Shown one piece after another: positions 15,831-56,935 of a stretch of 64,000 bases of DNA. Source of the DNA: Raja brachyura. Taxonomy: Eukaryota. The position numbers and the translations under genes are program-made. Location of the stretch: positions 19,592,001 to 19,656,000 of the forward strand of contig OY740804.1 in assembly GCA_963514005.1 (NCBI GenBank), given 5' to 3'. The notes below the pieces were generated by a model that saw only the letters and a program-made list of their open reading frames with translations, did not search any database and was not told the DNA's origin. Numbering within the stretch: the stretch's first letter is position 1; each line of letters starts with the position of its first letter.

Positions 15831-16148
15831 CTGGAACTGGGGCTGACCCTCGCCTTGTGTTCGGAATTGTGGGACAAAAGGCCTTGTTACCTTCTGGGCT
15901 TCAAGTCAAAGAGAGCAATATTGAGATTGTGTGGGAACACGTATCATCCAGAACCAGGATACTGGAATATGCGAAAGGGAAATTGAAATACTATGACACC
16001 AGGTACAAGGGACGGGTAAATCTTCATCTCAATGACTTCAGTCTGGAAATTTTAAGTTTACAGACACAGGACGCCGGAGATTACGAGGTAACTGTAACAC
16101 TGGATACGGGCGCACAGACTGTGTCCACAGTCCGACTGGAGGTATACG
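15831..16148 (+). CDS. CD2/SLAM-family receptor, exon 2 (IgV domain without the canonical disulfide)
   Basis: Polypyrimidine tract and CAG acceptor; G|GTGAGT donor; 318 nt, phase 1/1; motifs IVWE, YKGRV, FSLEI, DAGDY, VRLEVY; no Cys. Confidence 0.92.
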
Positions 16149-17381
16149 GTGAGTGAGACTGCCGCCGAGGAGCCCGGGTTTAACCATTTCATGAAACCTC
16201 CCATCCCACATAAATGGGTGAGGGCTAATACTGTACATTGTTTACTGAATCCCACTGACTGCCAGTGTCCAGAGTGGGGGGGTGACGGTTCCAGTGTAAT
16301 GGGACTGGGGCAGTGCCAAGCTGGGGGACATCCCCGGAGACTGGGCAAGGGGCCGCAAAGGCTCGAACTGTCAACGGGGAACTCTCATGGCTCCAAGGCT
16401 GGAGAAGCTGGGCACCGTCAGAACAGGCCCGACAACTGGAAATGGGGTTCATGGGGTGCTGTGGACCATCAGCAGCAGAAATATCCTCCACACAGCCTGT
16501 AATCTCATGGTCCGGCACATCCCTCACGCCACCATTACAGTCACCCAGGGGGGTCATCCCTGGTTCACTGAGGAGCGCAGAGGACATGCTGTAAGCAGCA
16601 CCAGGTGGAGCTAAACACGATGAGGTGCCAGGCTGATGAAGCTGCGACACAGGGCAACGTGCGAGCTCATCAGCAAAAACAGCCGCATGAAACAGAGCTA
16701 AGGGACCGCACTGCCCATGACTCGGGTCACAGCTCTACAGTAATCTCCTATCTGGTCATGACTAGTGGTTGAGAATTCAACAGCTCATGTGGTGAGGAGT
16801 CTAAGAACTCCCCATTCACAGTGATGCGGGGACCCAGCATGTGAGTGCTGGAGACAAGGCTGATCATCCACAAACATGTCCCTCCACAGCCGGAGGTGCT
16901 GAGTGGATGATCTCTCTCGGCTTCCTCCTGAGATCCCTCCAACACAGAACTGTCCCTGGACTATTTTCAGTTCAGTCCATGTGATCCCAGGAAATGGCTG
17001 AGAGCCCCAGAGAGAGCAATGTTTCCTGATAACATCACAGCTATAGTATGGAAGACCTGTGCTCCAGAACCAGTTGCATGTCTCGCAGTGCAACCCAAGG
17101 ATACGGGAACCACAACTGTGTGCCATGCTCTCTGTGTGGTCTGCCAACTCCCAACTCGCCCCTCACTCTCACTGCTATGCCCTGGCCATCTCTCCTCTAC
17201 TCTCTCAGTCCTGAGTCACAATCTCAACTAAAACAAAATTCATCTCCCTCCACAGATTAGTTTAATTTAGTTTGGTTTAGCGATACAGCGGGGAAACAGG
17301 CCCTTCGGCCCATCTAGTCCACGCCAACCAACGATCTTCCACGAAGGACAATTTATGGAAGCCAATTAACCTACAAACCTG

Positions 17382-18742
17382 GGGTTACACAAAAAGCTGG
17401 AGAAACTCAGCGGGTGCAGCAGCATCTAAGGAGCGAAGGAGATAGGCGACGTTTCGGGTCGAGACCCTTCTTCAGACTGGTCAGGGATCAGGGAAACGAG
17501 AGATATAAACAGTGATGTGGAGAGATAAGGAACAATGAGTGAAAGATATGCAAAAAAGTATTGGTGATAAAGGAAGCAGGCCATTGTAAGCTGTTTGTGG
17601 TGTGAAAATGAGAAGCTAGTGCGACTGGGGTGGGGGGGGGGGGGGGGGAGATGGAGAAGGAATGTCAGGGCCAGAGGGCTGAGGGAGAGGTGGGGGGGGA
17701 GGCAGTCTGGGTTAACAGAATTGAGAAAATTCAATGTTTAAGCCCAGAGGATGCAGACTCCCCAAGCGGAATATGAGGTGCTGTTCCTCCAACTTGCGGT
17801 GTTGATCACTCTGGCCGTGGAGGAGGCCCAGGACCGAGAGGTCGGATACGCAGTGGGAGGGGGAGTTGAAGTGCTGAGCCACCGGGAGGTCGGGTTGGTT
17901 ATTGCGGACCGAGCGGAGGTGTTCGGCGAAACGATCGCCCAGCCTCCGCTTGGTCTCACCGATGTAGATCAGCTGGCATCTGGAGCAACGGATGCAGTAG
18001 ATGAGGTTGGAGGAGATGCAGGTGAACCTCTGTCGGACTTGGAATGACTGCTTGGGTCCCTGAAAGGAGTGGATGGGGGAGGTGAAGGGACAAGTGTAGC
18101 ATCTCTTGCGGTTGAGACCAAGTGGAGGCTGGTATACATCGGTGAGACCAAGCGGAGGCTGGGCGATCGTTTCGCCGAACACCTCCACTCGGTCCGCAAT
18201 AACCAACCCGACCTCCCGGTGGCTCAGCACTTCAACTCCCCCTCCCACTGCGTATCCGACCTCTCGGTCCTGGGCCTCCTCCACGGCCAGAGTGATCAAC
18301 ACCGCAAGTTGGAGGAACAGCACCTCATATTCCGCTTGGGGAGTCTGCATTCTCTGGGCTTAAACATTGAATTTTCTCAATTCTGTTAACCCAGACTGCC
18401 TCCCCCCCCCACCTCTCCCTCAGCCCTCTGGCCCTGACATTCCTTCTCCATCTCCCCCCCCCCCGTCGCACTAGCTTCTCATTTTCACACCACAAACAGC
18501 TTACAATGGCCTGCTTCCTTTATCACCAATACTTTTTTGCATATCTTTCACTCATTGTTCCTTATCTCCCCACATCACTGTTTATATCTCTCGTTTCCCT
18601 GATCCCTGACCAGTCTGAAGAAGGGTCTCGACCCGAAACGTCGCCTATCTCCTTCGCTCCTTAGATGCTGCTGCACCCGCTAAGTTTCTCCAGCTTCTTG
18701 TGTAACCCTCGATTCTCCAGCATCTGCAGTTCCTTCTTCAAC
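17382..18742. mobile_element. Penelope-like element: inverted pair of GIY-YIG endonuclease 3' ends
   Basis: NLIYCIRC..LIYIGETKRRLGDRFAEH..GLN encoded on both strands; near-perfect ~580-bp inverted arms; TSD AACCTACAAACCTG at 17368-17381 and 18743-18756. Confidence 0.92.
18615..18642 (+). ncRNA. Minimal type I hammerhead ribozyme motif in the Penelope terminal repeat
   Basis: CUGAAGA-A-GGGU(CUCG)ACCC-GAAA-CG-UC; identical copies on the minus strand at 17448-17475, 19062-19089 and 36222-36249. Confidence 0.6.
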
Positions 18743-21468: not shown

Positions 21469-21753
21469 AGCCTGTGTCAGGAACACAGATCTTGGTTCAG
21501 CGCACCGGCATCTGCAACTTCACCCTGACCTGCTCCGTGACCTCTGGTGCCCCCACCAGCTTCAGGTGGTGGAAGGGAGGAGAAGCTCTGGGAAATGACA
21601 GCACCCATCACCTTCGGGGACACGGAGAGATTATAGCAGTTCATCATACAGCAAAGGACAAGGATGTTGTGTACAAGTGTGAGGCCAAGAACCCGAGCAG
21701 TACAGGCACGGCACAGGTCCGGCTCAAAAACGTCTGTAAGCAGACCACATCTG
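21469..21753 (+). CDS. CD2/SLAM-family receptor, exon 3 (IgC2 domain, four Cys)
   Basis: CAG acceptor; G|GTGAGT donor; 285 nt, phase 1/1; EPVS..CNFTLTC..FRWWK..YKCEAKNPSS..VC. Confidence 0.92.
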
Positions 21754-22224
21754 GTGAGTGTCAAAGGGGGAATTGTTTTTTAGAAAGGAGCTGAGATTCC
21801 TTCATACCTGTAGTGTATTTGGGTGCTTTTAACTGACTTAAAAGAACACTCGGATACAGGAGTAAACTAACAAGCTTCTTTATTCTAGGACTTCACCTTG
21901 AGTCTCCCCCAGCGCATGCATCCCCTCGCACAAGACATAACATATGCCAATTATATCACATACATCACACTGCTCCCCCTTTAACTTGGAGGCAGGTAAC
22001 ACCATTTACATTATATACATTACACTGCTCCCCCTTTAACTTGGAGGCGGATAACACCATTTTGTTTACATTAAATATAATTGATTAATTATATTATTAC
22101 AGTCATCTTACATTACATCCATATAACTGTAATAATCATATCTAAACTTAGCACATAATTTTTCATTCCACTCATCTTCCTTAAACCACATACTTTATGT
22201 AACACATAAACCCCTTGCTTTATG

Positions 22225-22760
22225 TGTTATCCTTTTCCGTTCCCTTCTGTGTAAATTGCGCACTCTTTCTAATCACTCTAGTTCTACCTGTATCTCTGCC
22301 TCTTCCTTTTTAAATATCCTAATCTAATTTGCAGATTTCTTCCTGTTCCTGATATTCTGCTAAAGTTAACATTTCCTTCTCTGCTTTGTTTTCCTCTGTT
22401 TCTGTTCCTTATTTGTAGGTGGGATCTGACACATGACTGCAGGTATTCGTTTTCTAGCAGCTTCCTCTGTCGCACAATTTCCTGGTGCTGCGTGTTTATC
22501 TGCTCTTGCTGTACAATAACATTCTGCAATGCATAACCATTTGTCCATTGCTCAGTGAAGGAAGCTCCATGCTGGACTATAGTGAAGTGTCCTAATCGCA
22601 ATCGGTCCTGCATACTTTTGGCTCGACCGACAAGCCTCTCTTCTTTAGACTTTTCTCGTAACAGCTTTTTGCTCATCGTCGCACATTTATTTAACCGTAC
22701 TTTGTATCATTTAAGCCTTTTCTGTTGTTCATCTATTTGTCTTCTTAAATCACCTTTCTG
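22225..22760 (-). pseudogene. TLK2: Captured intronless tousled-like kinase coiled-coil fragment (TLK2-like), frameshifted
   Basis: [82 protein letters not shown]. Stops before the kinase domain. Confidence 0.9.
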
Positions 22761-23782
22761 GTTATTCATCAAGAAGTAGGATCTGTATTGTCTTTGCAAT
22801 ACAACAGTGGCTTTGATTTGCGCTCTGTATAGTTTTCTTACTACATAAGCACGGTAGTGAGACTGCACTACAACTGTTGTATATTTCAGTTTGAGGAAGT
22901 TTTTCCTATATCGTTTAAGTCTTTTGTATTGTGCATCTATTTGTCTCCTTAGGTCTTTCCTATACCAAGTCATACAAAGTACTGACTGAACTTTTACAGT
23001 AGCCCTCTTTTGCTTAATCCAATGCCTAACCACATACCCTTGTAGGCAGCCTGAATGGTAATGGTTGCATGCCTCATTGACTGATTTTGCACAAACTGGG
23101 AATGCCCTATTTTGCATGCTTTGTACCATCTCTGGATCAAAATGACTGCTTGTCTCATTGCTCTGTAGCGTACCCTTGATCGGTAACCACGGTATGCAGC
23201 TTGCAGAGTGATTACAGCCGCCTTTTGCATCAAGAAATGTTTTCTTGTAATGCACATCATTAAGACTGACTTAATATGGTGTGTCGCCTTGATTTTCTCA
23301 ACCAATTCGCTGGCTTTAATCCCACGGTAGAAGACCTGAATACAAACCACTGCTTTTCTCAAACTATTATAATGTCTCTCTTGGACATCTCTTATCTGGC
23401 AAGCTCTATATTGCTGCTGTACTGCAATGGCAGACCTGCATAGTTTCTTGAAATACTGACGCTGTTTATGCATCTGATAATACGTCTGCATGACCTTGGC
23501 AGATTTGAGCATCACCCCAATTGCTTTCGAACAAGCATTCCTCGGTAGGCAGCCTGAATCAGCACAACACTGCTGTGTACCTTCATGTAAGTCTTGCGAT
23601 CACTTTCCATTTGAAGGTGTGCCCTATAATGGGTTTGTACTATTATAGCTGCCAATCTCATTGCCCTGTATGGACGGTATACTCTGTGCCTTCTAAATGC
23701 TGTTTGCATTACCATTGCTGCCTTCTGTTTGTTCTGGATCTCTCGCCGTACCTTCATACCCCTGAATGCAGCTTGAATGGTT
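22760..23782 (-). pseudogene. ASPM: Captured ASPM-like IQ-repeat fragment, frameshifted
   Basis: Serial IQxxYRG repeats with ASPM-type spacing in ORFs 23512-23757, 22994-23515 and 22707-23255. Confidence 0.8.
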
Positions 23783-24320
23783 AGCTGTATTTCACCCTCG
23801 TTAGACCTTATCTGGACTACGCAGTTGCAGCTTGGGACCCATACATAGATAAAAACATTTCATCCATCGAACGTGTCCAAAGACAGGCCGCTCGATTTGT
23901 TACTAACACCTACGATAGAGAAGCGACTGTCACCAAACTTCTGAATTCTCTGGGGTGGAACCCTCTCCAAGACAGACGTGAAGCTCACCGTTTGACCTGT
24001 TTTTACAAAATGTTAAATGGTCAGCTAGACATAGATCACAAGACCTACACCAACCCCAAACCAATTAGGAGCAGACGAGGGCATTCGATCCAATTTGTGG
24101 TCCCAGCCTCAAAGACAGATGTGTACAGCAATTCGTTCTTTCCACGCACTATTAAAGCATGGAATAATCTCCACCAAGCCACGGTTGCCCAGCCAGATGC
24201 AACTAAATTTAAAGTGACACTTTCTTCCCAATAACCCTCTCTGGCTAAACCCCTCCCTTCACCACCTCCAGTTTAAATTCCAGTTGGAATATTTTGGAGG
24301 ACCAAGTAACCAAGAACCAA
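23783..24320 (+). mobile_element. CR1-group (L2/Crack/Daphne-like) LINE 3' fragment nested in the LTR element
   Basis: YFTLVRPYLDYAVAAWDPY..IERVQRQAARFV and SFFPRTIKAWNNL; (AACCAAG)n tail; GGTT on both flanks. Confidence 0.85.
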
Positions 24321-24758
24321 GGTTGCCTTCTGGATGGCAATGTCCCTTTCCATTTGACTTTTGTCCCTTTGCCTTTGACCTTTGGCCTTTTCCACTTGAC
24401 CTTTGTCACTTGGCACTTGACTTTTGTCACTTTGCCCTTTACTTTTGTCCTTTGAGGAACTCCCTGCCCTCTTTAGTTTAGGCTCCTTGCCTATGGATAC
24501 CCTTGGAGGTTTTGGCAAGAAATGAGCCATTAATGCCTTCTTACACTCCTCATACATTTTGTCTGTGGGCTTTGCTGGCAGCAGTAACATACGCGAGGTC
24601 TGATAACCCTCTCTTCCTAAGCCTAATATGCTCCATGCTCTCTTCTCCTCTGCAGCGATATCATTGGAAATGAACGAAGCCTTCAAGACTTCGGTCCATT
24701 TCTCAAAATTACACCCAGAATCTAACTGGGGCACCTTTCCTACAATTTGAAAAATCAT
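24321..24758 (-). pseudogene. Gypsy gag N-terminal stub followed by a low-complexity linker
   Basis: FEKWTEVLKASFISNDI..LGREGYQ..LLLPAKPTDKMYEE..LMAHFLPKP resembles vertebrate Gypsy gag N-termini. Confidence 0.75.
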
Positions 24759-25212
24759 GCTAGCTGTTGCTATTCAGGTGCACTATATTCTGTTCTCTCA
24801 CTGTTTTCTGCACTGGACTCAATCCACTGACTATTACCAATTCTTATAATAATAGATTTACACTATTAACCAACATTTCATGTCAATAGCCATTAAGAAC
24901 ATTTTTAACCATATTCCTTCTATGCACACAGATTTACTATTAATAACGGTGATCAATGCATTACATTCAAACAGTCCTGCTTTTACTGTGCCCATGCATT
25001 ACATTCACAGAGGGCTTTTATTATGAAGTATTTCACAGCTCCAGCTTGTGGTCTGTGGACTCTGGTGCATCCTCGACCTCTCGAGCTGTCTCCACCAGTA
25101 CCTTTGCTGATGGCCTCACCGGACCTCCACTTTTTTGTTGCTTTTGCTGGCTCCCCCGGGCTTCACCATTACTTTTGCTGCCGCTGGCTCACTGCCGAGT
25201 CGACTCCCGTTG

Positions 25213-26139
25213 CTACGCTGACTTGCCTGCTGTCTCCCTTGTACGCCCTGCGGAAGGTAAGTCGCTGCTGCTGGTCCCACTGCTCGTCTCGTCGCTAGCT
25301 AACTGGCACGCCTGGCTGCTCGGCTTGTCGGGACTGTGCCCCGCTGTCGGGGGCTGGGTAAGCGCTGTGTCCTGCTTCTCTCGCGCGGACCCGCTTCTCT
25401 CTCTCTCGGCCGGCTTTCTCTCGCGACCGGGCTTTCTCCACTTCCGGCCGTCTCCCGCGACCGGGCTTTCTCCGCTTTTTCCCCCTACCGGGCTGACCCT
25501 GCTCCTGACTGGGCTGAAATGCTTGAGTGCTGTGTCCTGCTTCTCTCGCGTGGACCCACTTCTCGCTCGGGGGTCGGATTTCCTCTCGCGTCCAGGCTTT
25601 CCCCGCTCTCGGCCGTCTCTTGCGACCGTGCGCTGTGTCCCGCTTCTCTCGCGGGGCCTGGTCCACTTCTCTCTCGCAGTCGGCTTTCCCACTTGGTCGG
25701 TCCGCTTCTCTTGCGTGGCCGGACCCTCTTTTCTGCTCACGGTTGGGCTGACTCTGCTCCTGACCGGGCTTTCTCTGCTCGCGGTCGTCTCCTGCGACCG
25801 GGCTTTCTCACACGACTGGTCCGCTTCTATCCGGGCCGTTTTTTTAACTCGGCCGGTCCGCTTCTCACGCGGCCGGCTTTCTCCCTCGACCGGGCTGATT
25901 CTTCTCCCGGCCGAGCTTTCTCTCATGACCGGGCTGACTGCTCCTGGCCGGGTTGACTCCGTTTGTGTCGGTGGCTTCTCCGGACCTGCCCGTGACCTAC
26001 CCGGTACTAGGCCCTCACTGGACATTGGTGGCGGCTCCTGGGCCTGGCTGTGGGCTACACAGCCCTGGAAAACGTTCAAAGTCGGTGGCGGTCTCCGGAC
26101 CTGTCCGTGGCCTACATGGTACACGGCCCTGGAACTCAC
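25213..26139 (-). other. GC-rich degenerate repeat region with an Arg/Ser/Pro-rich open frame inside the LTR element
   Basis: 308-aa ORF with recurring SPVRSRVSP and REK units; the opposite strand is also open. Confidence 0.35.
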
Positions 26140-27299
26140 CCGAAGTCGGTGGCAGCTACTGGGCCTCTACTGCCCCTTTGCCGTGGCTGCACGGTCCTGG
26201 AAAGCGTTCCAGGTAAGTTGACACTGTCGCTGTCCTGCTGGTTAGTTTTCCAGCTTTCGGCTGCGTACTTCGGTGACACTTACTTACTGCCCCACTTGTT
26301 TTCCTCGCTTCCTGTTCCGACCTTTCCTTTCTTTGGCGCCAATTCAAAACCATATGGCGCTAAACCTTTTTGCTTAGTGCTGTTCCACTTTGTTTCCATT
26401 ATACAACCTCTTCTTTTAAACTTTTTTTTCTCTTGACAGCCCTTCTTCTTTGTTCTTTTCTGTTCTTTTATCCTCGGTGCCTTGTTATCCTTGTTGTGTG
26501 TTTTGGTGTAACAATTCACCTAAAACCTAGCTGTACAAAGATTATTCAGCTTGAGGAATTCGACAAAAAAAACTCAGGTAAAATGTATAACAATCCGAAG
26601 GACGACATTTTGACACCTAGACACAACTTAGAGATAGCCTGACAAACTCGCCGACTTGTACAGCTTTAAACTACAGTCCCGTGCTTAGAGGGATCTGTAG
26701 GCCTCTCATGTCCAGCTCGCAAACAACTGCGACACAACTCCGTATCTACTGTTTAAACTGTTAAACAATTCTGCGTGTTGCAAAACAGTCCTGCGGGTGA
26801 GTTCACAAACTCCATCCCATCCTCGTCGCCAATTGTAGTGTATTTGGGTGCTTGGAACTGACTTAAAAGAACACTCAGATACAGGAGTAATCTAACAAGC
26901 TTCTTTATTCTAGGACGCCACCTTGAGTCTCCCCCAGCACATGCATCCCCTCGCACAAGACATAACATATGCAAATTATATCACATACATCACAGTACCC
27001 AAGGAGTTTATTTTTATGATTTCATCGATTTGTTGGGACCTGGAACATCAAGCTGTGACACTTTCCATTGCCATTCCATTGATGAAAACAGGGTTGTTGA
27101 TCCTTGGCTTTTCCCTCCTGAAGTCAACAACCATCTCTTATAGAAACAAAGAACTGCAGATGCTGGTTTCCAAAAAATAGCTCAACGTGCTGAAGGATCT
27201 CAATGAATCAAGCTTCACCTCTGGAGAACATGGATAGGAAACTTTGCAGGTCAGGTTTCAGCTCCTTGGCCTTGCTGTAATTGAGAGCAAGATTGGTGC

Positions 27300-27945: not shown

Positions 27946-29600
27946 ATGACGATCATCAAAATGCAGATGTCATATGCCAGTGAACTTTACAGTGGTAACT
28001 GATCTGAGAGCCCCTTGTCCAGACCTCCTGGTGAAGAAGCTGGATTGGGAATGGAGATTTCACCAAATGACTACCAAGTCAAAGCAGCCAACCAGTACCT
28101 TCAAATTCTTCACTGATGCCTGGCCACATTGAAGACTGGAATGGTTCCCCCTCCTCGAGGATGGAACTGAAATCCACCACTTCAAACAATGCATTTACCA
28201 CAGTTAATGATGCTCAAGATATATAACTGGCTCCGACTACATATTATCTCTGTACCGCCTATTCCCCTGGCATCAGTCTGAAGGGTCTTGAACCAAAACA
28301 TCACTTATTTCTTCTCTTCAGAGAGCATCATGCCTGTCTCGCTAAGTTACTCCTGCATTCTATGTCTATCTTTGATTTAAACCAGCATCTGCAGTTCTTT
28401 TCTACACCTTCTAACTTCTATATTTAATACTTGACTAATGAAGCCAGTGTGCCGAAAGCCGAAATTCTTCCATAGTGTGATTGAAGTCTGCCTGAGAGTT
28501 TGCAGCCTCTGCTTGCATATTGGAAGGTTTGCTCCTCAAGTTCTGGTTGCACTTCAGACCGTGCTCCTGATCTTTGGGCACCCAGTGTGGGCCTCGGTGG
28601 GTCTGTTAGGGAACGTACGCGTTGGTCTGCTCCTGGGTCCAGCCCAGATGGCATTTCACAGGTGCAGCTGTGCGTAGTCGAAAGTTCCGCCCTGACTACC
28701 AGATCCTCTTTGGAGGTTATGTTCATATCTGGGTGACATTGAGAGGCAATGTGCAGCATCTACTGGCTGCTTGGGGGCTGCCTGGGAGCAGAGGACACTG
28801 CAGTGGCTCAAGTGTGTCGAGATAAGGTTGTTGTAACTTGAAGTTTGTTGATCGTATACTGTATGAATACAATCCTGTATACCTGTACGTGTACAAATAT
28901 AATGTATACTGTCCTAGTGTGATGCTTGTAATCGTGGAATTTCCTTTAAAAAAGAAAACAACTGTGGTCTAACTCAGAAACTGGCGTAATATATGGAGGG
29001 GGTAAAGTGAATGGTGATTGGAGAGGATAGTGGGGTATTGGAGAGGATCGAGGGGAATTGCTCTGGATGGAGGGTGAAAGAGGATAGCGGGATTGGAGGG
29101 AAGTGATGTATGGGGATATTTGAGGCAATTGAGGAACATGGAGGGTGGAGGAGGAAAAGGAGGGGAGTGAAAATAAAAACCACTGCAGTTTCCCAAAAGC
29201 ACGAAGCATCCGTGGAAAGAGAAACAGTTCGCGTTTCACATGAAGAACTCTTCATCAGACCTGAGAGACGAAGAAATGTCAGTATAGGTGGCAGTGAAAT
29301 GTGAGGGAGGGGATGGGTTGGAGTCTAAGGTGGGATGAGGGCGTGTGGCAGATGGGAGATGGTTGAGTTACTGTGGCCGTGCGACCTATTGCTGATGTGG
29401 TTCTGGCCACTGGGACGTGCCCAACAGGGCTGGCTGTCCAGGGAGAGGAAACAGGATGGCACTGGTTTGGGGTTTAGTGGGGAGAGATGGGAGTGGCAGT
29501 GGGGACATGATACTCGGGTGGGGTGGGAGTGGATCGATCCACCCCATGTCACTGGGGGAGACGATGGGGTTGGAGTCACTGAGTCTTTTCTCCTCAACAG

Positions 29601-29780
29601 GATTGCCGTGGTGGGTGATAATGCTGATCGCCATTGGGGTTCTGATTGCGATTATTGGAGTCTTCTTCATCGCTTACGTCTGCATGCTGAGTGCAACACA
29701 TGTGACGTGGGCCGAGCTGCGTGCCGGCTGGGTCAACTGGCACCAAGAAGATCCAAAGAGTTGTGCTTCCTTCTGTACCC
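29601..29780 (+). CDS. CD2/SLAM-family receptor, exon 4 (transmembrane and juxtamembrane)
   Basis: CAG acceptor; C|GTGAGT donor; 180 nt, phase 1/1; WWVIMLIAIGVLIAIIGVFFIAY. Confidence 0.85.
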
Positions 29781-30199: not shown

Positions 30200-31530
30200 T
30201 GAGGTCCCCCACAGACCCAGTTACTGGGGTACACTGTCCCCCACAGACCCAGTTACTGGGGTACACTGTCCCCCACAGACCCAGTTACTGGGTTACACTG
30301 TCCCCCACGGACCCAGTTACTGGGGTACACTGTCCCCCACAGGCCCAGTTACTGGGGTACACTGTCCCCCACAGGCCCAGTTACTGGGGTACACTGTCCC
30401 TCACACACCCAGTTACTGGGGTACACTGTCCCCCACAGACCCAGTTACTGGGGTACACTGTCCCCCACAGGCCCAGTTACTGGGGTACACTGTCCCTCAC
30501 ACACCCAGTTACTGGGGTACACTATCCCCCACAGACCCAGTTACTGGGTTACACTGTCCCGCACAGATCCAGTTACTGGGGTACACTGTCCCCCACAGGC
30601 CCAGTTACTGGGGTACACTGTCCCTCACACACCCAGTTACTGGGGTACACTGTCCCCCACAGGCCCAGTTACTGGGGTACACTGTCCCCCACAGGCCCAG
30701 TTACTGGGGTACACTGTCCCCCACAGGCCCAGTTACTGGGGTACACTGTCCCCCACAGGCCCAGTTACTGGGGTACACTGTCCCCCACAGGCCCAGTTAC
30801 TGGGGTACACTCCCCCACAGGCCCAGTTACTGGGGTACACTGTCCCCCACAGGCCCAGTTACTGGGGTACACTGTCCCTCACACACCCAGTTACTGGGGT
30901 ACACTGTCCCCCACAGGCCCAGTTACTGGGGTACACTGTCCCTCACACACCCAGTTACTGGGGTACACTGTCCCCCACAGGCCCAGTTACTGGGGTACAC
31001 TGTCCCCCACAGGCCCAGTTACTGGGGTACACTGTCCCCCACAGGCCCAGTTACTGGGGTACACTGTCCCCCACAGGCCCAGTTACTGGGGTACACTCCC
31101 CCACAGGCCCAGTTACTGGGGTACACTCCCCCACAGGCCCAGTTACTGGGGTACACTGTCCCCCACAGGCCCAGTTACTGGGGTACACTGTCCCCCACAG
31201 GCCCAGTTACTGGGGTACACTGTCCCCCACAGGCCCAGTTACTGGGGTACACTGTCCCCCACAGATCCAGTTACTGGGGTACACTCCCCCACAGGCCCAG
31301 TTACTGGGGTACACTGTCCCCCACAGGCCCAGTTACTGGGGTACACTGTCCCCCACAGGCCCAGTTACTGGGGTACACTGTCCCCCACAGGCCCAGTTAC
31401 TGGGGTACACTGTCCCCCACAGGCCCAGTTACTGGGGTACACTGTCTCCCACAGACCCAGTTACTGGGGTACACTGTCCCCCACACGCCCAGTTACTGGG
31501 GTACACTGTCCACCACACCCAGTTACTGTG
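30200..31530 (+). repeat. 32-bp minisatellite (CCCAGTTACTGGGGTACACTGTCCCCCACAGG), ~41 units, in intron 5
   Basis: Direct tandem array; the 492-aa ORF is a by-product. Confidence 0.97.
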
Positions 31531-42510: not shown

Positions 42511-45169
42511 TTACCTTTATTCCTTGGAAACCTTGCTATTGTTTTGATGTAATTAGGAGGCAGACATGATCCCAGAGTCCCCGCTGCCTAGCGACCATAA
42601 AACTAAGTGTGGAATTGGTCAATTTGCATCCAACCTCAATGTCAAACGTGCATTGATTGGACAATTACTACTCGGAAAATTGGATGTTTTCTCATATTTT
42701 TAAAAAATGTGCAGGTTTTAGTCTTGACGAATTTCAGGTATGATTTAAATAATATTTTTACACAATATGTTAAAAATTCAGGTAGTTCCGTGAGTTGGAT
42801 CACGAACTTGAACGAGAAAGCTCCTCGGCCCACGGCTTACCATTGGTCGCTGGGGCTCGGCTTTCGCCGGCGCCAGGGGGGTTGGCCAGCAGCTGGGGCT
42901 GGCGCTTCTTCTCCGCGCTGGCTGTGGCCTGGGGCCGTTGATGTCGTCGGTCCAGGGCTGTCAGTTGGCCCGGTGGGGCAGGTGGAGTTGAGCTGGGGTC
43001 AGAGCTTATCTCTGTGCTGGCTGTGGGCCTAGGGCCACTGGTGTCGTCATTCCAGGGTTACCCCGGATATCTCCGGCCGCCCCCCCGGGCGGGGATGAGA
43101 CACTTGAGGGGGGGGGGGGGGGGTCCAGTGGTGGTTCGACAGCGCTTCTGGTGCTGGGTCCCAGAATAGATCCTGGCTGTGGATGAGGCGAGTGTCTGTG
43201 TGCGGACTCTCCCGTCTCCCGCTCGCATCTGCGCCCCCTCTATTGCTGTGACACCCCGCTTTCCCACTACCTGTTCCTTTGGGGGGGATGAGGAGTTGAC
43301 CATTCATGGGAGTTTCTCTGGAATCGAGCATTCAGTCTTGCTGAGCAGGAACCTACCCTGTGAAGAGTGTGACACATTCACACTCTTCAGCACCACCCAG
43401 TCAATATTTACGCAATGGCTGAGAAATAACTAGTAACATTCACACAGTGCCAGGCGATGATCATCCTCAACAGGTGCATCTTACCACCTGCCCCCAATGT
43501 TTATTGATATTTCCATCATCCAGTCCCGCCCATCAACAAGCTGGGGACATGATTAACCTGTAACTCCAATTGACACCATGGCTACAGGAGCATGTGAGAC
43601 ACTGGGTCTCCTCTGGGAGACAGTATGAAAGGAGGCTCTCCACTCTCCACTATTTATTGATTATAGCTCAACATTCACACCATAAACCCATCCAAACTCA
43701 TCTACAAACTCCTTGACCTAGGAGTTGCAGAGAAAAAGTCCAATGTCCGCAATGAGGCAGATTAAAATATCAGTCTCCACTAATTACAATGCTGAGAAAA
43801 TATATTCTGCACTCTGGCATTTTTCTCTTTGCTCTACCTGTTGTGCTTGATTGACTGTATTCATGTACTGTATTATCAGGTTTGATTGGATAGAACAAAA
43901 GCAAAAGCTCAAAGGCAACTAATGGTGGGTGATAAATGTTCAGCTTGACAGTCACATCAAGATTCTTGTAAAATGAAAAAAAAACTCTTCCCGACGTCTC
44001 TAAAGCCGATCAGCCCGACACCCCTCTGAGATCTCCAAGCTCCTCCAGCACCAGTACTCCCCCCCCCCCCCCCCCCATATCTCTGTAACCTCCTCCATTT
44101 CCGCAGATGCCCAGCAACAGAATGATTTGGAAGAAGCTTTTAGAGATTTTATTATAAAATATCTAGATTAATGAATTACATAAAAATCTGAAGTAACTTA
44201 ATAAAAAACCTGCTGTACACACTGGGCAGGTCTGTAGAGAAAAATTCAGATGAAACCCTTTGGACCTGGTACAATAACTCTGTGATGCTGTCTGACCCAC
44301 TCGATGTCTGACAGTGAACAGGTGAATAATGTTCCCAGTGTCTGGTGCACCACAGCACCAGGTAGTGAAAGGCTGTGTAAGAGTGGCTTCACTGATGAAA
44401 TGTTCACCGGTTAGTGTTTAACGTAAAACAGCAGCAATAAGCCATTGGCAATAGGTGACCCTGCTTCAGCCCTAGAGAGCGGGACCCAGGAGCTTTAGGG
44501 AGGTGTAGACAGTCCCTGGCCTCTTCCCATAGTCATGGGGAGAGGAGTGCCAGAACCTGGGTGGGGTCTCGACCAGAAACATCACCCATTCCTTCTCTCC
44601 AGAGATGCTGCCTGTCCCATTGAGTTACTCCAGCAGTTTGTGTCTGCCTTGGAGTCTCCCTTTAATTGTCTTTGGTTCCTCACCCGGTCCTGACCTCTGG
44701 CACTTTCCCCCGGGATGTAAATAAATGAAAACTAAAACTGGGACAAATGTCTCTGGAGCATCTGTGGAACATCAGTGGAGAAACAGTCAGTAACACAGAG
44801 CACAGAGCAGGTATGGTAACAAACCACAGTTTGGGATAGTCAGGGAGACTTGGGGTGGAATCACCACTGGTCAATGTAGAACCCCTGGTGTCGAACACGG
44901 TTCCTGCTCAGAGGGCCAATGAGAAAAAGGATCGAGGTTCCAGTCGGACGGAAACACCCCCACCATCCTCCCTTTGCACTGGAGATGGGCATTGTTCCCC
45001 AGTAACTGGGCACGTGCAGAGGCATTCACTGCCCAATGTAGGTAGCAGATGTCCGTGAGCTGGAGTCTCTCTGTCAAGAGGTGACTGAGCTGATGTCTCT
45101 TCTCAGTCGGTGTCTGCGAGTGGGATCTCTCTGTCTGAGCTGCCGAACCACGTCCAATCCATTCTTCAA

Positions 45170-45189
45170 TCACAGCATCGCTGCCATTT
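45170..45189 (-). CDS. Inverted paralog, terminal coding exon (EMAAML-stop)
   Basis: Reverse-complement homolog of 31765-31784. Confidence 0.5.
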
Positions 45190-45424
45190 CTGTAGGACAG
45201 AGAGCAGAAGTGAGGAGACCAGTGAGTGCCCATTGACTGACACTTCTCAGTGTCCCCATTCTAACCCCTCTTCCCTCACAAAGCAGCAGCTCAATACCAA
45301 CTGTCCCTGTCCCACTTGACACATGCACCCCCGGGGCTTACCCTTGTGTGTCTGCCCATTCCGAGACCCAAATCGTCACAAAATGCCATGGAAAACGTTG
45401 AGATGACAACACACGCCCCATCAT

Positions 45425-45915
45425 CACAGTAACTGGGGGTGGTGGACAGTGTACCCCAGTAACTGGGCCTGTGGGGGACAGTGTACCCCAGTAACTGGGT
45501 GTGTGGGGGACAGTGTACCCCAGCAACTGGTCGTGTGGGGATTCTTAACCCAGTAACTGGGTCTGTGGGGACAGTGTACCCCAGTGACTGGGTGTGTGGG
45601 GGAACAGTGTACCCCAGTAACAGGGTGTGTGGGGGAGTGTACCCCAGTAACTGGGTGTGGTGGACAGTGTACCCCAGTAACTGGGCCTGTGGTGGACAGT
45701 GTACCCCAGTAACTGGGTGTGTGGGGGACAGTGTACCCCAGCAACTGGTCGTGTGGGGATTCTTAACCCAGTAACTGGGTCTGTGGGGACAGTGTACCCC
45801 AGTGACTGGGTGTGTGGGGGAACAGTGTACCCCAGTAATAGGGTGTGTGGGGGAGTGTACCCCAGTAACTGGGTCTGTGAGGACAGTGTACCCCAGTAAC
45901 TGAGTGCGTGGGGGA
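45425..45915 (-). repeat. Shorter, more diverged copy of the 32-bp intronic minisatellite
   Basis: Reverse complement of the unit at 30200-31530. Confidence 0.9.
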
Positions 45916-46022
45916 CTGTTCTGTCATTTCCCACCTGTGGCCCTTTCTCAGTTCCTGGTTCCACTACGGTGTGTCAGTGATGGGCTACAGGAGACCCCCG
46001 CTGGGGCCTTGCTGTTGCTTAC

Positions 46023-46082
46023 CGTTCCTGTTCGTCCCATTGTTCTGGCCAAGCGTGGTGACTGGTTTTGGATTCCACAAGA
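46023..46082 (-). CDS. Inverted paralog, cytoplasmic exon (LWNPKPVTTLGQNNGTNRN), open
   Basis: 60 nt, AG/GT bounded; homolog of 30067-30126. Confidence 0.6.
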
Positions 46083-46368
46083 CTGTAGGGGGATGAACAC
46101 AGGTTACAAGACTGTAATCAGCGATCTGCTTAATGAGACCCTCTCTCCAACTCCACATTACAAATCCTGCCCCATCTTCCATTCTCTGCCCATCCCTCTC
46201 ACAACCCTGCACCTCCCACCTACTCCTCTGAGTCTCCTCTCTCCTGCCCTTTCTATCATCTTGTCCACATTCCCTGCCCCTCCCCTATCTGCTCCTCCCA
46301 CCCTTCCTACCCCTTGTTCTGCACTCCCCTGATGACCCTACACTCCCCAGATTGGCACAGACACTCAC

Positions 46369-46548
46369 GGGTACAGAATGAAGCACAGCTCTTTGGATCC
46401 TCTTGGCGCCAGTCGACCCAGCCGGCACGTAGCTCGGCCCACGTCACATGTCTTGCATTCAGCATGCAGCGGTAAGCGATGAAGAAGACTACAATAATCG
46501 CAATCAGAACCCCAATGGCGATCAGCATTATCACCCACCACCGCAATC
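46369..46548 (-). CDS. Inverted paralog, transmembrane exon
   Basis: 180 nt, AG/GT bounded; WWVIMLIAIGVLIAIIVVFFIAY; 7 aa differences from 29601-29780. Confidence 0.8.
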
Positions 46549-47588
46549 CTGTAGTTGGTGAGGAGAAAAGACTCAGTTACTCCAAACCCATCGTCGCTCC
46601 CAGCGACACGGCGTGGACAGATCCACTCCCACCCCACCCCAGTATCATGCCCCCACTGCCACTCCCATCTCTCCCCACTAAACTCCAAACCAGTGCTGCC
46701 ATCATGTTTCCTCTCCCTGGACAGCCAGGCCTCTTGGGCACGTCCCAGTGGCCAGAACTACATCAGCAACAGGTTGCACGGCCACAGTAGCGCAACCATC
46801 TCCCATCTGCCACAAATCCTCACCCCACCTTAGACTCCCCCTTATTTCAACACATTCCCTCCCTGTATACAGTCTGCCCAATCATTAGAATCTCATAGAT
46901 TAGATTATTTTGAATTCAGTGAATTCAGTGGTCTTACCAGCCCAATCTCCCAGAGACCACTCAGTCATACTGCATGGAAACATGCTTTTCAACCCAATTT
47001 GCCCATGCCGACCAAGAAGGCCCATCAACACTAGTTCCACCTGCCAAAATTTGAAGAAATATTATATAATACAATTGCTCAGATAATAACGTTCATGTGA
47101 GGAACTTATTTTAAGTTGCAAGAGAAGGGCTTGGAGTTGGGGTTTTCAGAAATATATGTCCCCACAAAGAAATAAAGTGCAGAGAACACACACACATGAG
47201 ACCAGATGGCTTATCATAACATGGAAATGTTGATCTGAATAGGCATAATTTTATTTGCTTTGAAACAGCTATAACGCTGTCAGAAGTTGTATTTGGTTTA
47301 GTTTGGTGTTTAGAGTATAGGTTGATAATGGGGTATCTTCTCAAGACATGGGCACCATTTGCCATTTCTTTGTGACACATCTTTGTGCTCTGGTGTGTCA
47401 TAAAGAGGTTTTATGGTTGTCTATATTGGGTCTTAGACAGCAAGGCTAGATAATAATCTGTGATCTGGTTTGTGCTGTTTAAATGTATTTATGTTGAGAT
47501 AAGAGATAAGGCATAGGTGATGGTTGTGTGACCTTTGTAAAAGGGTGATTTCTTATGTTTATAGAAAACTGAGAAAGTAACTCAGTTT

Positions 47589-54524: not shown

Positions 54525-56935
54525 ATGGACGCTTTTCGCATCCTGAACTTACGTCGCCTTTGGCATTTTACATTTTCGGCCCCTTTTGCATCCTGAATTT
54601 TCGTCACTTTTCGTGTGCTGAATTTTCATCGCTTTTCACATCATGATTTTCGTCACTTTTCGCGTCCTGAATTTACGTCGCTTTTCGCATTTTGAATTTT
54701 TGACGCTTTTCGTGTCCTGAATTTTTGACACTTTTCGTCACATTTCATGTGCTGAATTATCGTCGCTTTTCGCGTGAGGAATTTTCATCGTTTTTCACAT
54801 GCTTAATTTTGGTCGCTTTTCGCATGCTGAATTTTCGTCGGTTTGTCGCGTCCTAAAGGTTTGTCGCTTTTCTCGTGTTGAATTTTCGTTGCTTTTTGCA
54901 TGCTGAATTTTTGTCGTCCTGAATTTACATCACTTTTCACATCCTGAATTTTCATCACTTTTCGCGTCCTGAATATACGTTGCATTTGGCGTTTTGAATT
55001 TTCGTCGCCTTACTCATCCTAAATTTTCATCACTTTTCGTATGCTGAATTTTCGTCACTTTTCGTGTGTTGAATTTTTGTCGCTTTTCGCGCCCTGAAGG
55101 TTAGTCGTTTTTCAGGTGCTGAATTTTCGTCGCTTATCGCTTGCCTGAATTTACGTCGCTTTTCGCATTTTGAATTTTTGTCGTTTTTCGTGTCCTGAAT
55201 TTATGTCATTTTTCGTGTGCTGAATTTTCATTGCTTTTTGCGTGCAGAATTTTCATTGCTTTACGCATGCTGAATTTTCGTTGCTATTCCCATGCTGAAT
55301 TTTTGTTGCTGTTCATGTGCTGAACTTTGGTTGCTTTTCGCGTCCTGAAATTTCGTCGCTTTATGCGTCCTGAAATTATGTCGCTTTTGCCGTTTTGAAT
55401 TTTCGTCGCCTTTCGCGTCCTGAATTTACGTCACTTTTCATGTGCTGAATTTTCATTGCTTTTCACATCTTGAATTTTCGTCGCTTGTTACGTTTTGAAT
55501 TTTTGTCATTTTTTGTGTCGTGAATTTTCGTCACTTTTCGTGTGTTGAATTTTCGTCGCTTTTCACATGCTGAATTTTCATCACTTTAAGTACTGAATTT
55601 TTGTCGCTTTTTACGTCCTAAAGTTTTGTCGCTTTTCTCATGCTGAATTTTTGTCGCCTTTCGCGTCCTGAATTTTTGTCGCTTTACATGTCCTGAATTT
55701 TCGTCACATTTCATGTGCTGAATTATCGTGAGGAATATTCATAGTTTCATTTCACATGCTGAATTCAACACACACGTTTTAAATTTTTGTCGCCTTTCGG
55801 TTCCTGAATTTTCGTCACTTTTCGCGTACTGAATTTTTGTCGCTTTTCGCGTCTTAAAGGTTTGTCGCTTTTCACGTCCAAAAGGTTTGTCGCTTTTAAC
55901 ATGCTGAATTTTCGTCACTTTTCGCGTGCTGAATTTTCGTCGCTTTTCGTGTGCTGAAATTTTGTCGCTTGTCGTTCCCTGAAATGTCGTCGCTTTTCAC
56001 GTCCTAAATTTTCATCACGTTTGGCGTTTCGTATTTCCATCGCCTTTCGCGTCCTGAAGATTCGTTACTTTACGGGTGCTGAATTTTCATTGGTTTTCGT
56101 GTCCTGAAATTTCGGCGCTTTTCAGGTCCTGAAATTTCGGCGCTTTTCACGTCCTGAAATTTCGTCCCTTTTCACGTCCTGAAATTTCGTCCCTTTTCAC
56201 GTCCTGAAATTTCGTCCCTTTTCACGTCCTGAATTTACTTCGCGTTTGGCTTTTTGAATTTTTACGCCTTTCGCTTCCTGAATTTTCATCACTTTTCATG
56301 TGCTGAATTTTTGTTGCATTTTGCATCCTAAAGGTTTGTTGCTTTTTGCGTGCTGAATTTTCGCCATTTTTCGCGTGCTGAATTTTCATCGCTTTTCGTG
56401 TCCTGAATTTTTGTTACTTTTCGTGTGCTGTATTTTCGTCACTTTTTGCATGCGGAATTTTCATTGCATTTCGCATGCTGATTTTCATTACTTTTTGCGT
56501 CTTGAAGGTTCCTCGCTTATCGCGTGCGGAATTTTCGTTGCTTTTCGCATGCTGAAATTTGGTCGCTTTTCGCGTTCTGAAATGTTGTCGCTTTATGCGT
56601 CCTTAATTTTCGTTGCTGTTCATGTGCTGACATTTCGTTGCTTTTCGCATCCTGAATTTTCGTCGCTTTGCTCGTCCTGAATTTTCTTCTCATTTCGCAT
56701 CCTGGATATACATCGCTTTTGGCGTTTTTAATTTTCATTGCCTTTTGCGTCCTGAATTTTCGTCACTTTTCATGTGCTAAATTTCCGTCACTTTTCGCAT
56801 GCAAAAAGCGATTAAAAATTCCACACGCGAAAATGATGAAAATTCAGGACATGAAAAGCGACAACATTTCAGCACACTAAAAGCAACGGAAATTAAGCAT
56901 GCGAAATGCAATTAAAATTCCGCATGCAAAAATGT
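54525..56935 (+). repeat. 25-bp CpG-rich satellite array (TGAATTTTCGTCGCTTTTCGCGTCC), last ~130 bp inverted
   Basis: Degenerate tandem array of roughly 95 units; orientation flips near 56800. Confidence 0.93.

Follow-up and report, generated by a model that had tools for sequence, protein, structure and literature searches.

Gag-onc retroviruses carry host mRNA between their LTRs, often at the expense of their own genes. In a 64,000-nt stretch of the Raja brachyura genome (GCA_963514005.1, contig OY740804.1, positions 19,592,001 to 19,656,000; hereafter the window), a first-pass annotation pointed out a gag frame and an array of IQ motifs with a LINE between them, and proposed that the ancestral element had encoded a gag-ASPM fusion protein analogous to a gag-onc fusion. 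The locus raises the question of whether a retrotransposon joined host coding sequence to its gag in one reading frame and, if so, what kept that frame open as the element multiplied.

Structure of the element

A non-autonomous Ty3/gypsy LTR retrotransposon, present here as a decayed copy, makes up the locus. It has the hallmarks of that group: paired TG...CA LTRs, a primer-binding site (PBS), a polypurine tract (PPT), a 5-bp target duplication, and a gag with a capsid fold (Table 1). The K2P distance between its two LTRs is 0.052, and a 5-bp target-site duplication matching at 4 or more of the 5 positions is present in 17 of 24 copies with two LTRs. The primer-binding site is presumably that of tRNA-Ser. 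The interior holds pieces of two host genes, ASPM and TLK2, both on the sense strand and flanked by discontinuous LTR-element sequence. The linker behind gag contains a tandem repeat (24341-24450), and the commonest linker lengths step by 21 nt among copies. The window copy has two private single-base deletions in its ASPM fragment (near 23510 and near 23030); in its TLK2 part, codon 13 is a stop of the private type, and beyond codon 96 there are clade-shared frameshifts. A reading of the ASPM/TLK2 border as a 204-nt duplication (repeat D14) was discarded in favor of a 72-nt net insertion.

Table 1. Coordinates of the chimeric element and of the LINE inserted in it (window positions)
Feature	Position	Strand	Remarks
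Target-site duplication, 5 bp, upstream copy	26995..26999	-	4/5 match with 21804-21808
5' LTR	26834..26994	-	161 nt, TG...CA; 95% identical to 21809-21969
Primer-binding site	26814..26831	-	TGG-starting motif directly after LTR, kept in siblings
Long 5' leader	24759..26813	-	GC-rich internal repeats; shared in part with pol-bearing relatives
First capsid lobe of Ty3/gypsy Gag	24508..24758	-	Starts at ATG 24758
Gag linker remnant and 21-nt tandem repeats	24367..24509	-	Remains after internal gag deletion
ASPM-derived start	24321..24366	-	Upstream of LINE; blastn to host ASPM exon 82% over 45 nt, per-base match
LINE	23785-24320	+	536 nt, 5'-truncated, AACCAAG-type tail, private to window copy, without target-site duplication
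ASPM IQ-exon fragment	22953..23784	-	87% to host exon over 835 nt
Extra TLK2-start copy within ASPM part	22911..22952	-	In-frame insertion, 72 nt net; seen in middle-aged and young copies
Last ASPM piece	22748..22910	-	89.6% to host over 163 nt
TLK2 coiled-coil fragment	22225..22747	-	About residues 194-373, contiguous; PDB 5o0y E 4e-35; 79% to skate TLK2
Parent element's 3' untranslated part	21970..22224	-	Duplicated polypurine tract (55-nt repeat D11); 67-88% to parent 3' regions
3' LTR	21809..21969	-	AATAAA at 21884
Target-site duplication, 5 bp, downstream copy	21804..21808	-	Pairs with 26995..26999

The gag piece gave 155 HMMER matches. Among 15 scanned gag relatives (besides P0001), 14 had profile matches to Gag, protease, RT, or integrase, and one only to DUF7083/DUF7041. 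A Pfam search of the window's gag and TLK2 ORFs gave no match, a Foldseek search returned nothing at E 0.001, and the best match in a PDB sequence profile search was dArc1 (E 0.046). The predicted structure of the gag piece has a pLDDT of 84.8, and capsid domains make up 33 of its top 35 structural matches, the best with an rmsd of 4.3, 82 aligned positions, and a Z of 8.2, which is middling when taken alone. According to the model, the gag piece folds as one capsid lobe. Its position in the parent gag makes it the first lobe, as the fold alone cannot separate an N-lobe from a C-lobe.

The element lies antisense in an intron of a CD2/SLAM-like gene, about 45 nt past the apparent donor site of the second Ig exon. 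This gene is on the + strand; its Ig exons (V-set and C-type) and what is probably a transmembrane exon lie at 15854-16153, 21483-21791, and about 29400-29700. The best match is Receptor_2B4, and an inverted paralogous block is found at about 44300-46800. Elsewhere in the window, nested inverted repeats (17382-18708; 268-282 nt, 96-99%) surround pieces that we take to be Penelope-like, and minisatellites of 32 nt and 25 nt occupy 30204-31528, 45427-45916, and 54530-56798.

The nested LINE

The first-pass annotation had derived the fusion by collapsing the LINE between two GGTT motifs, which it took for a target-site duplication. GGTT does occur at both places (23779-23782 and 24321-24324), and we confirmed the ORF from the ATG at 24758 on the minus strand as well as the IQ motifs past the LINE (PF00612, E 7e-17). 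The GGTT pair is, however, not a target-site duplication. In 25 of 29 siblings the empty site consists of 10 bases, where the collapse leaves 4; the remaining four comprise two with a deletion there and two that our script mis-anchored. The six bases at 23779-23784 are ASPM-derived sequence of the element itself, and a contig from another run joins 23784 to 24321. Four runs were compared in all, each as contigs, of which two are marked as probably DNA and one is guessed to be RNA. The semblance of a duplication comes from an internal near-repeat of the native site together with one private substitution in the window copy. Other LINE copies run on at the 5' side with different letters in 11 of 11 cases, with only 2 nt in common with the target, and their 3' side ends in an AACCAAG-type tail. 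Since the error of the collapse is 6 nt, the frame is intact, and the claim that removing the LINE restores a continuous frame holds, although the junction peptide proposed for it is two codons short.

Nor does the LINE sit at the junction of gag and the IQ repeats; it lies about 45 nt inside ASPM-derived sequence. ASPM homology begins upstream of it, at about 24366, which rules out the LINE as a marker of the gag/ASPM border and leaves the gag-to-ASPM junction untouched by the insertion. The window's own ORF (24758-24273) already passes from gag into ASPM in frame. The LINE was absent from all 29 siblings selected by their gag. It belongs to a young family, presumably CR1/L2-like, with 109 candidates in the same genome, the 40 scored ones (L061-L072 among them) being 94-100% identical; its sister copies are 94-99% identical. 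The nested LINE is an ordinary one.

Copies and subfamilies

Searches of the skate genome gave 254 candidates with the gag part, of which 40 were scored, and 232 with the IQ part. The 29 siblings fetched by the gag part have their gag, 21-nt repeats, and IQ part next to one another. We mapped 60 full-length stretches and the window pairwise on natural references; 57 had enough cover, and four of the 61 (L094, L096, L103, and L135), with fewer than 900 mapped bases, were left out. The copy set is not a random one, because it was picked from the top matches of the searches. The tree of copies is ladder-like with long tips, and we sorted the copies into old (10), middle (23), and young (24) groups. 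In the old group the ASPM part reaches about 2.4 kb and the gag linker is longer; later copies have about 1 kb of ASPM, the 21-nt linker repeats, and the 72-nt in-frame insertion of the TLK2 start. LTR-pair distances, with mis-anchored rows excluded and uncalibrated to years, are about 0.01-0.08 in young and about 0.08-0.15 in older copies.

The family also occurs in Leucoraja erinacea, as indicated by XP_055489032.1, a 290-aa gag-linker-IQ protein whose gag part is 85% identical and which is named an ASPM homolog by NCBI. As weak negatives, a search for further annotated gag-IQ fusions yielded only P0001 among 37 candidates, and none of four candidates was an annotated protein across the ASPM-TLK2 border. 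Element copies contaminate annotation: the gag-IQ protein is filed as an ASPM homolog, and searches for TLK2 are swamped by them. In a cichlid, a protein named synaptotagmin-14 isoform X3 (P0201) has at its start a complete Ty3/gypsy Gag, zinc-knuckle-like motif included; it is possibly a gene-model artefact or an exonised gag.

Parent elements and host donors

With the closest full gag as the query, we found relatives in the same genome that share the LTR, the leader, and the 3' region and that have a full gag followed by pol in the order RT-RNase H-integrase. All parent copies examined are broken; a full-length relative bears the name K02A2.6-like. Where both ends of a parent can be seen, integrase is followed within a few hundred nucleotides by the 3' region and the LTR, and no env was noticed in the parents. 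From gag motifs, we take the parent clade to be Mag/CsRN1-like. The gag piece is 58-61% identical in amino acids to the four best-aligned gags of these relatives. The window contains a different, nearly intact Ty3/gypsy gag-pol on the + strand at 8363-12504, with a 966-aa frame and an overlapping integrase frame. We rejected this element as the parent, as its gag fails to align (E 0.25).

Compared with the parents, gag of the chimeric family is about 300-350 nt shorter through an internal deletion, and the stretch from the zinc knuckle through integrase is missing as well. A 64-nt second block in the gag linker matches parent elements about 340 nt further on. Measured against the five parents that are open across it, the gag deletion has a length divisible by 3 in four cases; against all 17 parents, it does so in 7. 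At the gag-to-ASPM switch point, about 7 nt are common to the parent and ASPM (four parents compared with L085; a raw overlap). Microhomology between coding sequences may favor in-frame joins. A separate recombinant, L112 (G000:C3:120684904-120688677), runs from a full gag and protease into the last 10 ASPM codons and TLK2; its junction is in frame and lies within an open frame of 335 codons.

The host ASPM gene was found via its ASH domain. Its large exon (L077, G000:C10, about 10,603,200-10,609,200) is an open frame of 1,999 codons, and the ASPM cargo comes from within this single exon. The cargo is rich in basic residues, with about 20% K+R and 2-3% D+E. The host exon contains internal repeats of 657 nt that are 77-100% alike over about 500 nt each; the repeats suggest a recent expansion or conversion of the IQ array. 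The alignment to TLK2 is unbroken in many copies over residues of about 192-375, and the kinase domain was not taken. We assume this span to be multi-exonic, as in vertebrate TLK2, in which case the captured piece would have lost its introns. A TLK2 search of the same genome gave 854 candidates; the host gene was not found among the 64 that were scored, all of which cover only the captured span, because element copies filled the search result.

Conservation of the reading frame

The proposal of an ancestral gag-ASPM fusion in one frame lost its supporting 4-bp duplication, an outcome that the first-pass annotation had named as refuting it, and is borne out by other evidence, namely the junction frames, the open siblings, and the annotated Leucoraja protein. 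The gag-to-ASPM junction is in frame in 30 of 51 copies (P = 1.7e-4 against an expectation of 1/3), the remainder having been scattered by private linker indels, and the ASPM-to-TLK2 junction is in frame in 50 of 53 copies; these counts are not independent, because the copies have common ancestry. In 7 of 29 siblings the gag ATG starts a frame that stays open into the IQ part. Of the 52 copies whose gag start could be mapped, none stays open past 285 codons.

The first-pass annotation had also suggested a search for one open frame from gag through the IQ repeats into TLK, and such a frame is present: in old source elements it runs through the whole TLK2 piece and in young ones to codon 96. Taking the commonest spacing of each segment, all 14 segments up to TLK2 codon 85 are in frame in all three age groups, and the last three are in frame in old copies only. 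No clade-shared stop or frameshift was found over 1,578 nt in 57 copies, and in gag, ASPM, and the first 96 TLK2 codons no frameshift is common to five or more copies. Stops that recur before TLK2 codon 97 reach at most 10 of 52 copies for any one codon and are scattered over the tree. Private mutations include 82 breaks per 680 substitutions, a rate at which 6.5 shared breaks would be expected for the 54 substitutions diagnostic of old versus young copies, provided that mutations in the source line had the same spectrum as private ones; none was seen (P about 0.0015).

The picture changes in the last 250 nt. From TLK2 codon 97 onward there are seven shared indels, six of which shift the frame. 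Past the first shift, the frame counted from codon 85 ran for 60-77 codons in three of five young or middle copies and for 8 and 33 in the other two. Shared indels in this tail are far above the predicted rate, so the tail may be a slippage hotspot.

Selection on the protein sequence

The first-pass annotation had further suggested computing dN/dS on the cargo. For each part we determined a net dN/dS between old and young copies and took the value within young copies as the baseline. Along the source line the ASPM part is neutral, with a net dN/dS of 0.72 (0.40-1.50) against a baseline of 0.69 and with nonsynonymous-to-synonymous counts of 24:6 among diagnostic and 313:121 among private changes. 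The first 96 codons of TLK2 have the lowest value of the parts, 0.32, with a wide interval (0.10-1.24; baseline, 0.66). For gag, the net value is 0.51 (0.22-1.39) against 0.78. The pooled value is 0.55 (0.35-0.86) against 0.69, a ratio of 0.79 (CI, 0.51-1.22). Differences from the host that are found in at least 90% of copies have an N/S of 1.27, in comparison with 3.2 for singletons (P = 0.007); the former class includes the host's own constrained changes and is not attributable to the element. No selection for positive charge was apparent: the source line gained charge three times and lost it four times, while private changes raised it 40 times and lowered it 73 times (P = 0.70). The frame signal is strong, and the residue signal is not clear. 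Moderate constraint on gag or TLK2 is possible, with point estimates below the baseline and wide intervals. Successive source elements kept the frame open while their amino acids drifted.

Origin and maintenance of the fusion

The source element lost the second capsid lobe by an internal deletion. The stretch from the zinc knuckle to integrase was replaced by part of the ASPM IQ exon and, behind it, the TLK2 coiled coil, in one frame with the first lobe. Capture probably occurred by template switching while a co-packaged host mRNA was reverse transcribed, and spread probably took place in trans, by Gag/Pol of pol-bearing relatives. The LINE is a later accident of one copy.

As to the open frame, we favor selection in cis for translation, with a probability of about 0.5, because breaks have been tolerated only near the end. 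A copy would have become a source only if ribosomes read nearly to the 3' end of its RNA. With about 400 nt between the stop and the poly(A) signal, in place of about 1,950 nt, the 3' UTR would stay near the parent length, and such a short 3' UTR could shield the RNA from surveillance of long 3' UTRs. The cargo would then be translatable filler. Among the points against this model, the element RNA has no introns, so only decay that is independent of exon junctions could apply, and many non-autonomous LTR elements spread without any ORF.

The main rival, compatible with reading in cis, is that the fusion protein itself acts in cis like that of mouse IAP 1-delta-1: the capsid lobe would co-assemble with helper Gag, and the basic IQ/coiled-coil tail would replace the nucleocapsid and hold its own RNA. 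We consider it possible but doubtful. It fits a deletion that spares exactly one folded capsid lobe, the very basic ASPM cargo, and the lower net dN/dS of gag than its baseline, and for IAP the portion of the review PMC6466679 used here describes a gag-pol fusion working in cis. Yet the diagnostic changes in gag (11 N:3 S) resemble the private ones (81:20), while parent gags show a dN/dS of 0.37; charge changes along the source line were no different from private ones, and the tail put up with changes of frame. In its boldest form, a Ty3/gypsy element would have rebuilt a cis-acting Gag from a capsid lobe, an ASPM IQ surrogate nucleocapsid, and a TLK2 oligomeriser and carried it through skate subfamilies, with one copy (e.g., the Leucoraja gag-IQ gene) perhaps nearing domestication; we regard this as rather unlikely.

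Could the frame have stayed open by luck, a few source copies having been in frame by chance? The ladder-like tree makes the source line essentially one lineage, and the lack of a copy open past 285 codons among the 52 agrees with an absence of selection; in the sections of PMC5131818 considered here, young LTR-mediated retrocopies are often in frame through youth alone. Luck must nevertheless span at least 54 substitutions, the linker reduction, the shortening of ASPM, and the 72-nt insertion without a break, at a P of about 0.0015 on the substitutions alone, and shared breaks are confined to the last 250 nt. We think this explanation improbable.

Hardly likely at all is a gag-onc-like host effect aiding germ-line spread (e.g., a calmodulin sponge or a dominant-negative TLK2 dimerisation domain), which would suit two donors that are both cell-division genes, the lowest net dN/dS being that of TLK2 codons 1-96, and a gag-IQ protein annotated in Leucoraja, but which is at odds with a neutral ASPM part whose length, about 2.4 kb in old copies, fell to about 1 kb and with a TLK2 kinase domain left behind. 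Chance co-packaging, too, would most readily pick up mRNAs abundant in the germ line. The analogy first drawn with gag-onc fusions is thus apt for the architecture, an in-frame gag-host fusion replacing element genes, and is not supported for the function, with ASPM neutral and the kinase domain absent. We do not class the family as gag-onc, because constraint on the cargo was looked for and ASPM did not show it.

The parent, old, middle, and young elements and the independent recombinant form a natural series that separates selection on the frame from selection on the protein, with the last 250 nt as an internal control. Why some non-autonomous LTR elements keep ORFs can thereby be tested from genomes alone.

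Comparison with known systems

We found no description of the chimeric family in our literature searches, and Repbase/Dfam or the supplementary lists of PMC5131818 may hold it. The closest parallel is the LTR-mediated retrocopies of Tan et al. 2016 (PMC5131818), where, in the sections used here, partial sense mRNAs of several parental genes lie in an LTR element, the switch points share short sequences, and later rounds proceed as non-autonomous elements. Those retrocopies are described as mostly young and low in copy number, with 14 of 21 older ones broken, in contrast to a skate family with more than 200 candidates, successive subfamilies, and a source line with an open frame. Maize Bs1, as presented in the same part of PMC5131818, is likewise an LTR element; it holds exonic pieces from several host genes, with switch points common to all copies. 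It is a plant element of 1-5 copies with three donors, one of them out of frame; the skate family is a vertebrate Ty3/gypsy one in which gag and both donors share one frame.

Mouse IAP 1-delta-1, according to the portion of PMC6466679 considered, is also non-autonomous, with an internal deletion that yields a single in-frame gag fusion ORF; it is moved in trans while its translation counts in cis, as would be the case in the skate. IAP is a betaretrovirus-like ERV that fuses gag to its own pol, whereas the skate element is a Ty3/gypsy one that fuses gag to host mRNA. In crocodilian ERVs that captured KIT-ligand and nectin3 (PMC4299795), host mRNA also lies between LTRs, often at the cost of element genes. 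These ERVs have env ancestry and 6-9 copies, and their captured ORFs are reported there to be under purifying selection, unlike the neutral ASPM cargo of the skate. The skate family is thus a variant of known LTR-mediated gene capture that is unusual in its copy number, in having two donors in frame, and in its apparent selection on the frame only, and it represents LTR-mediated exon shuffling of two host genes amplified to more than 200 candidate copies in a vertebrate.
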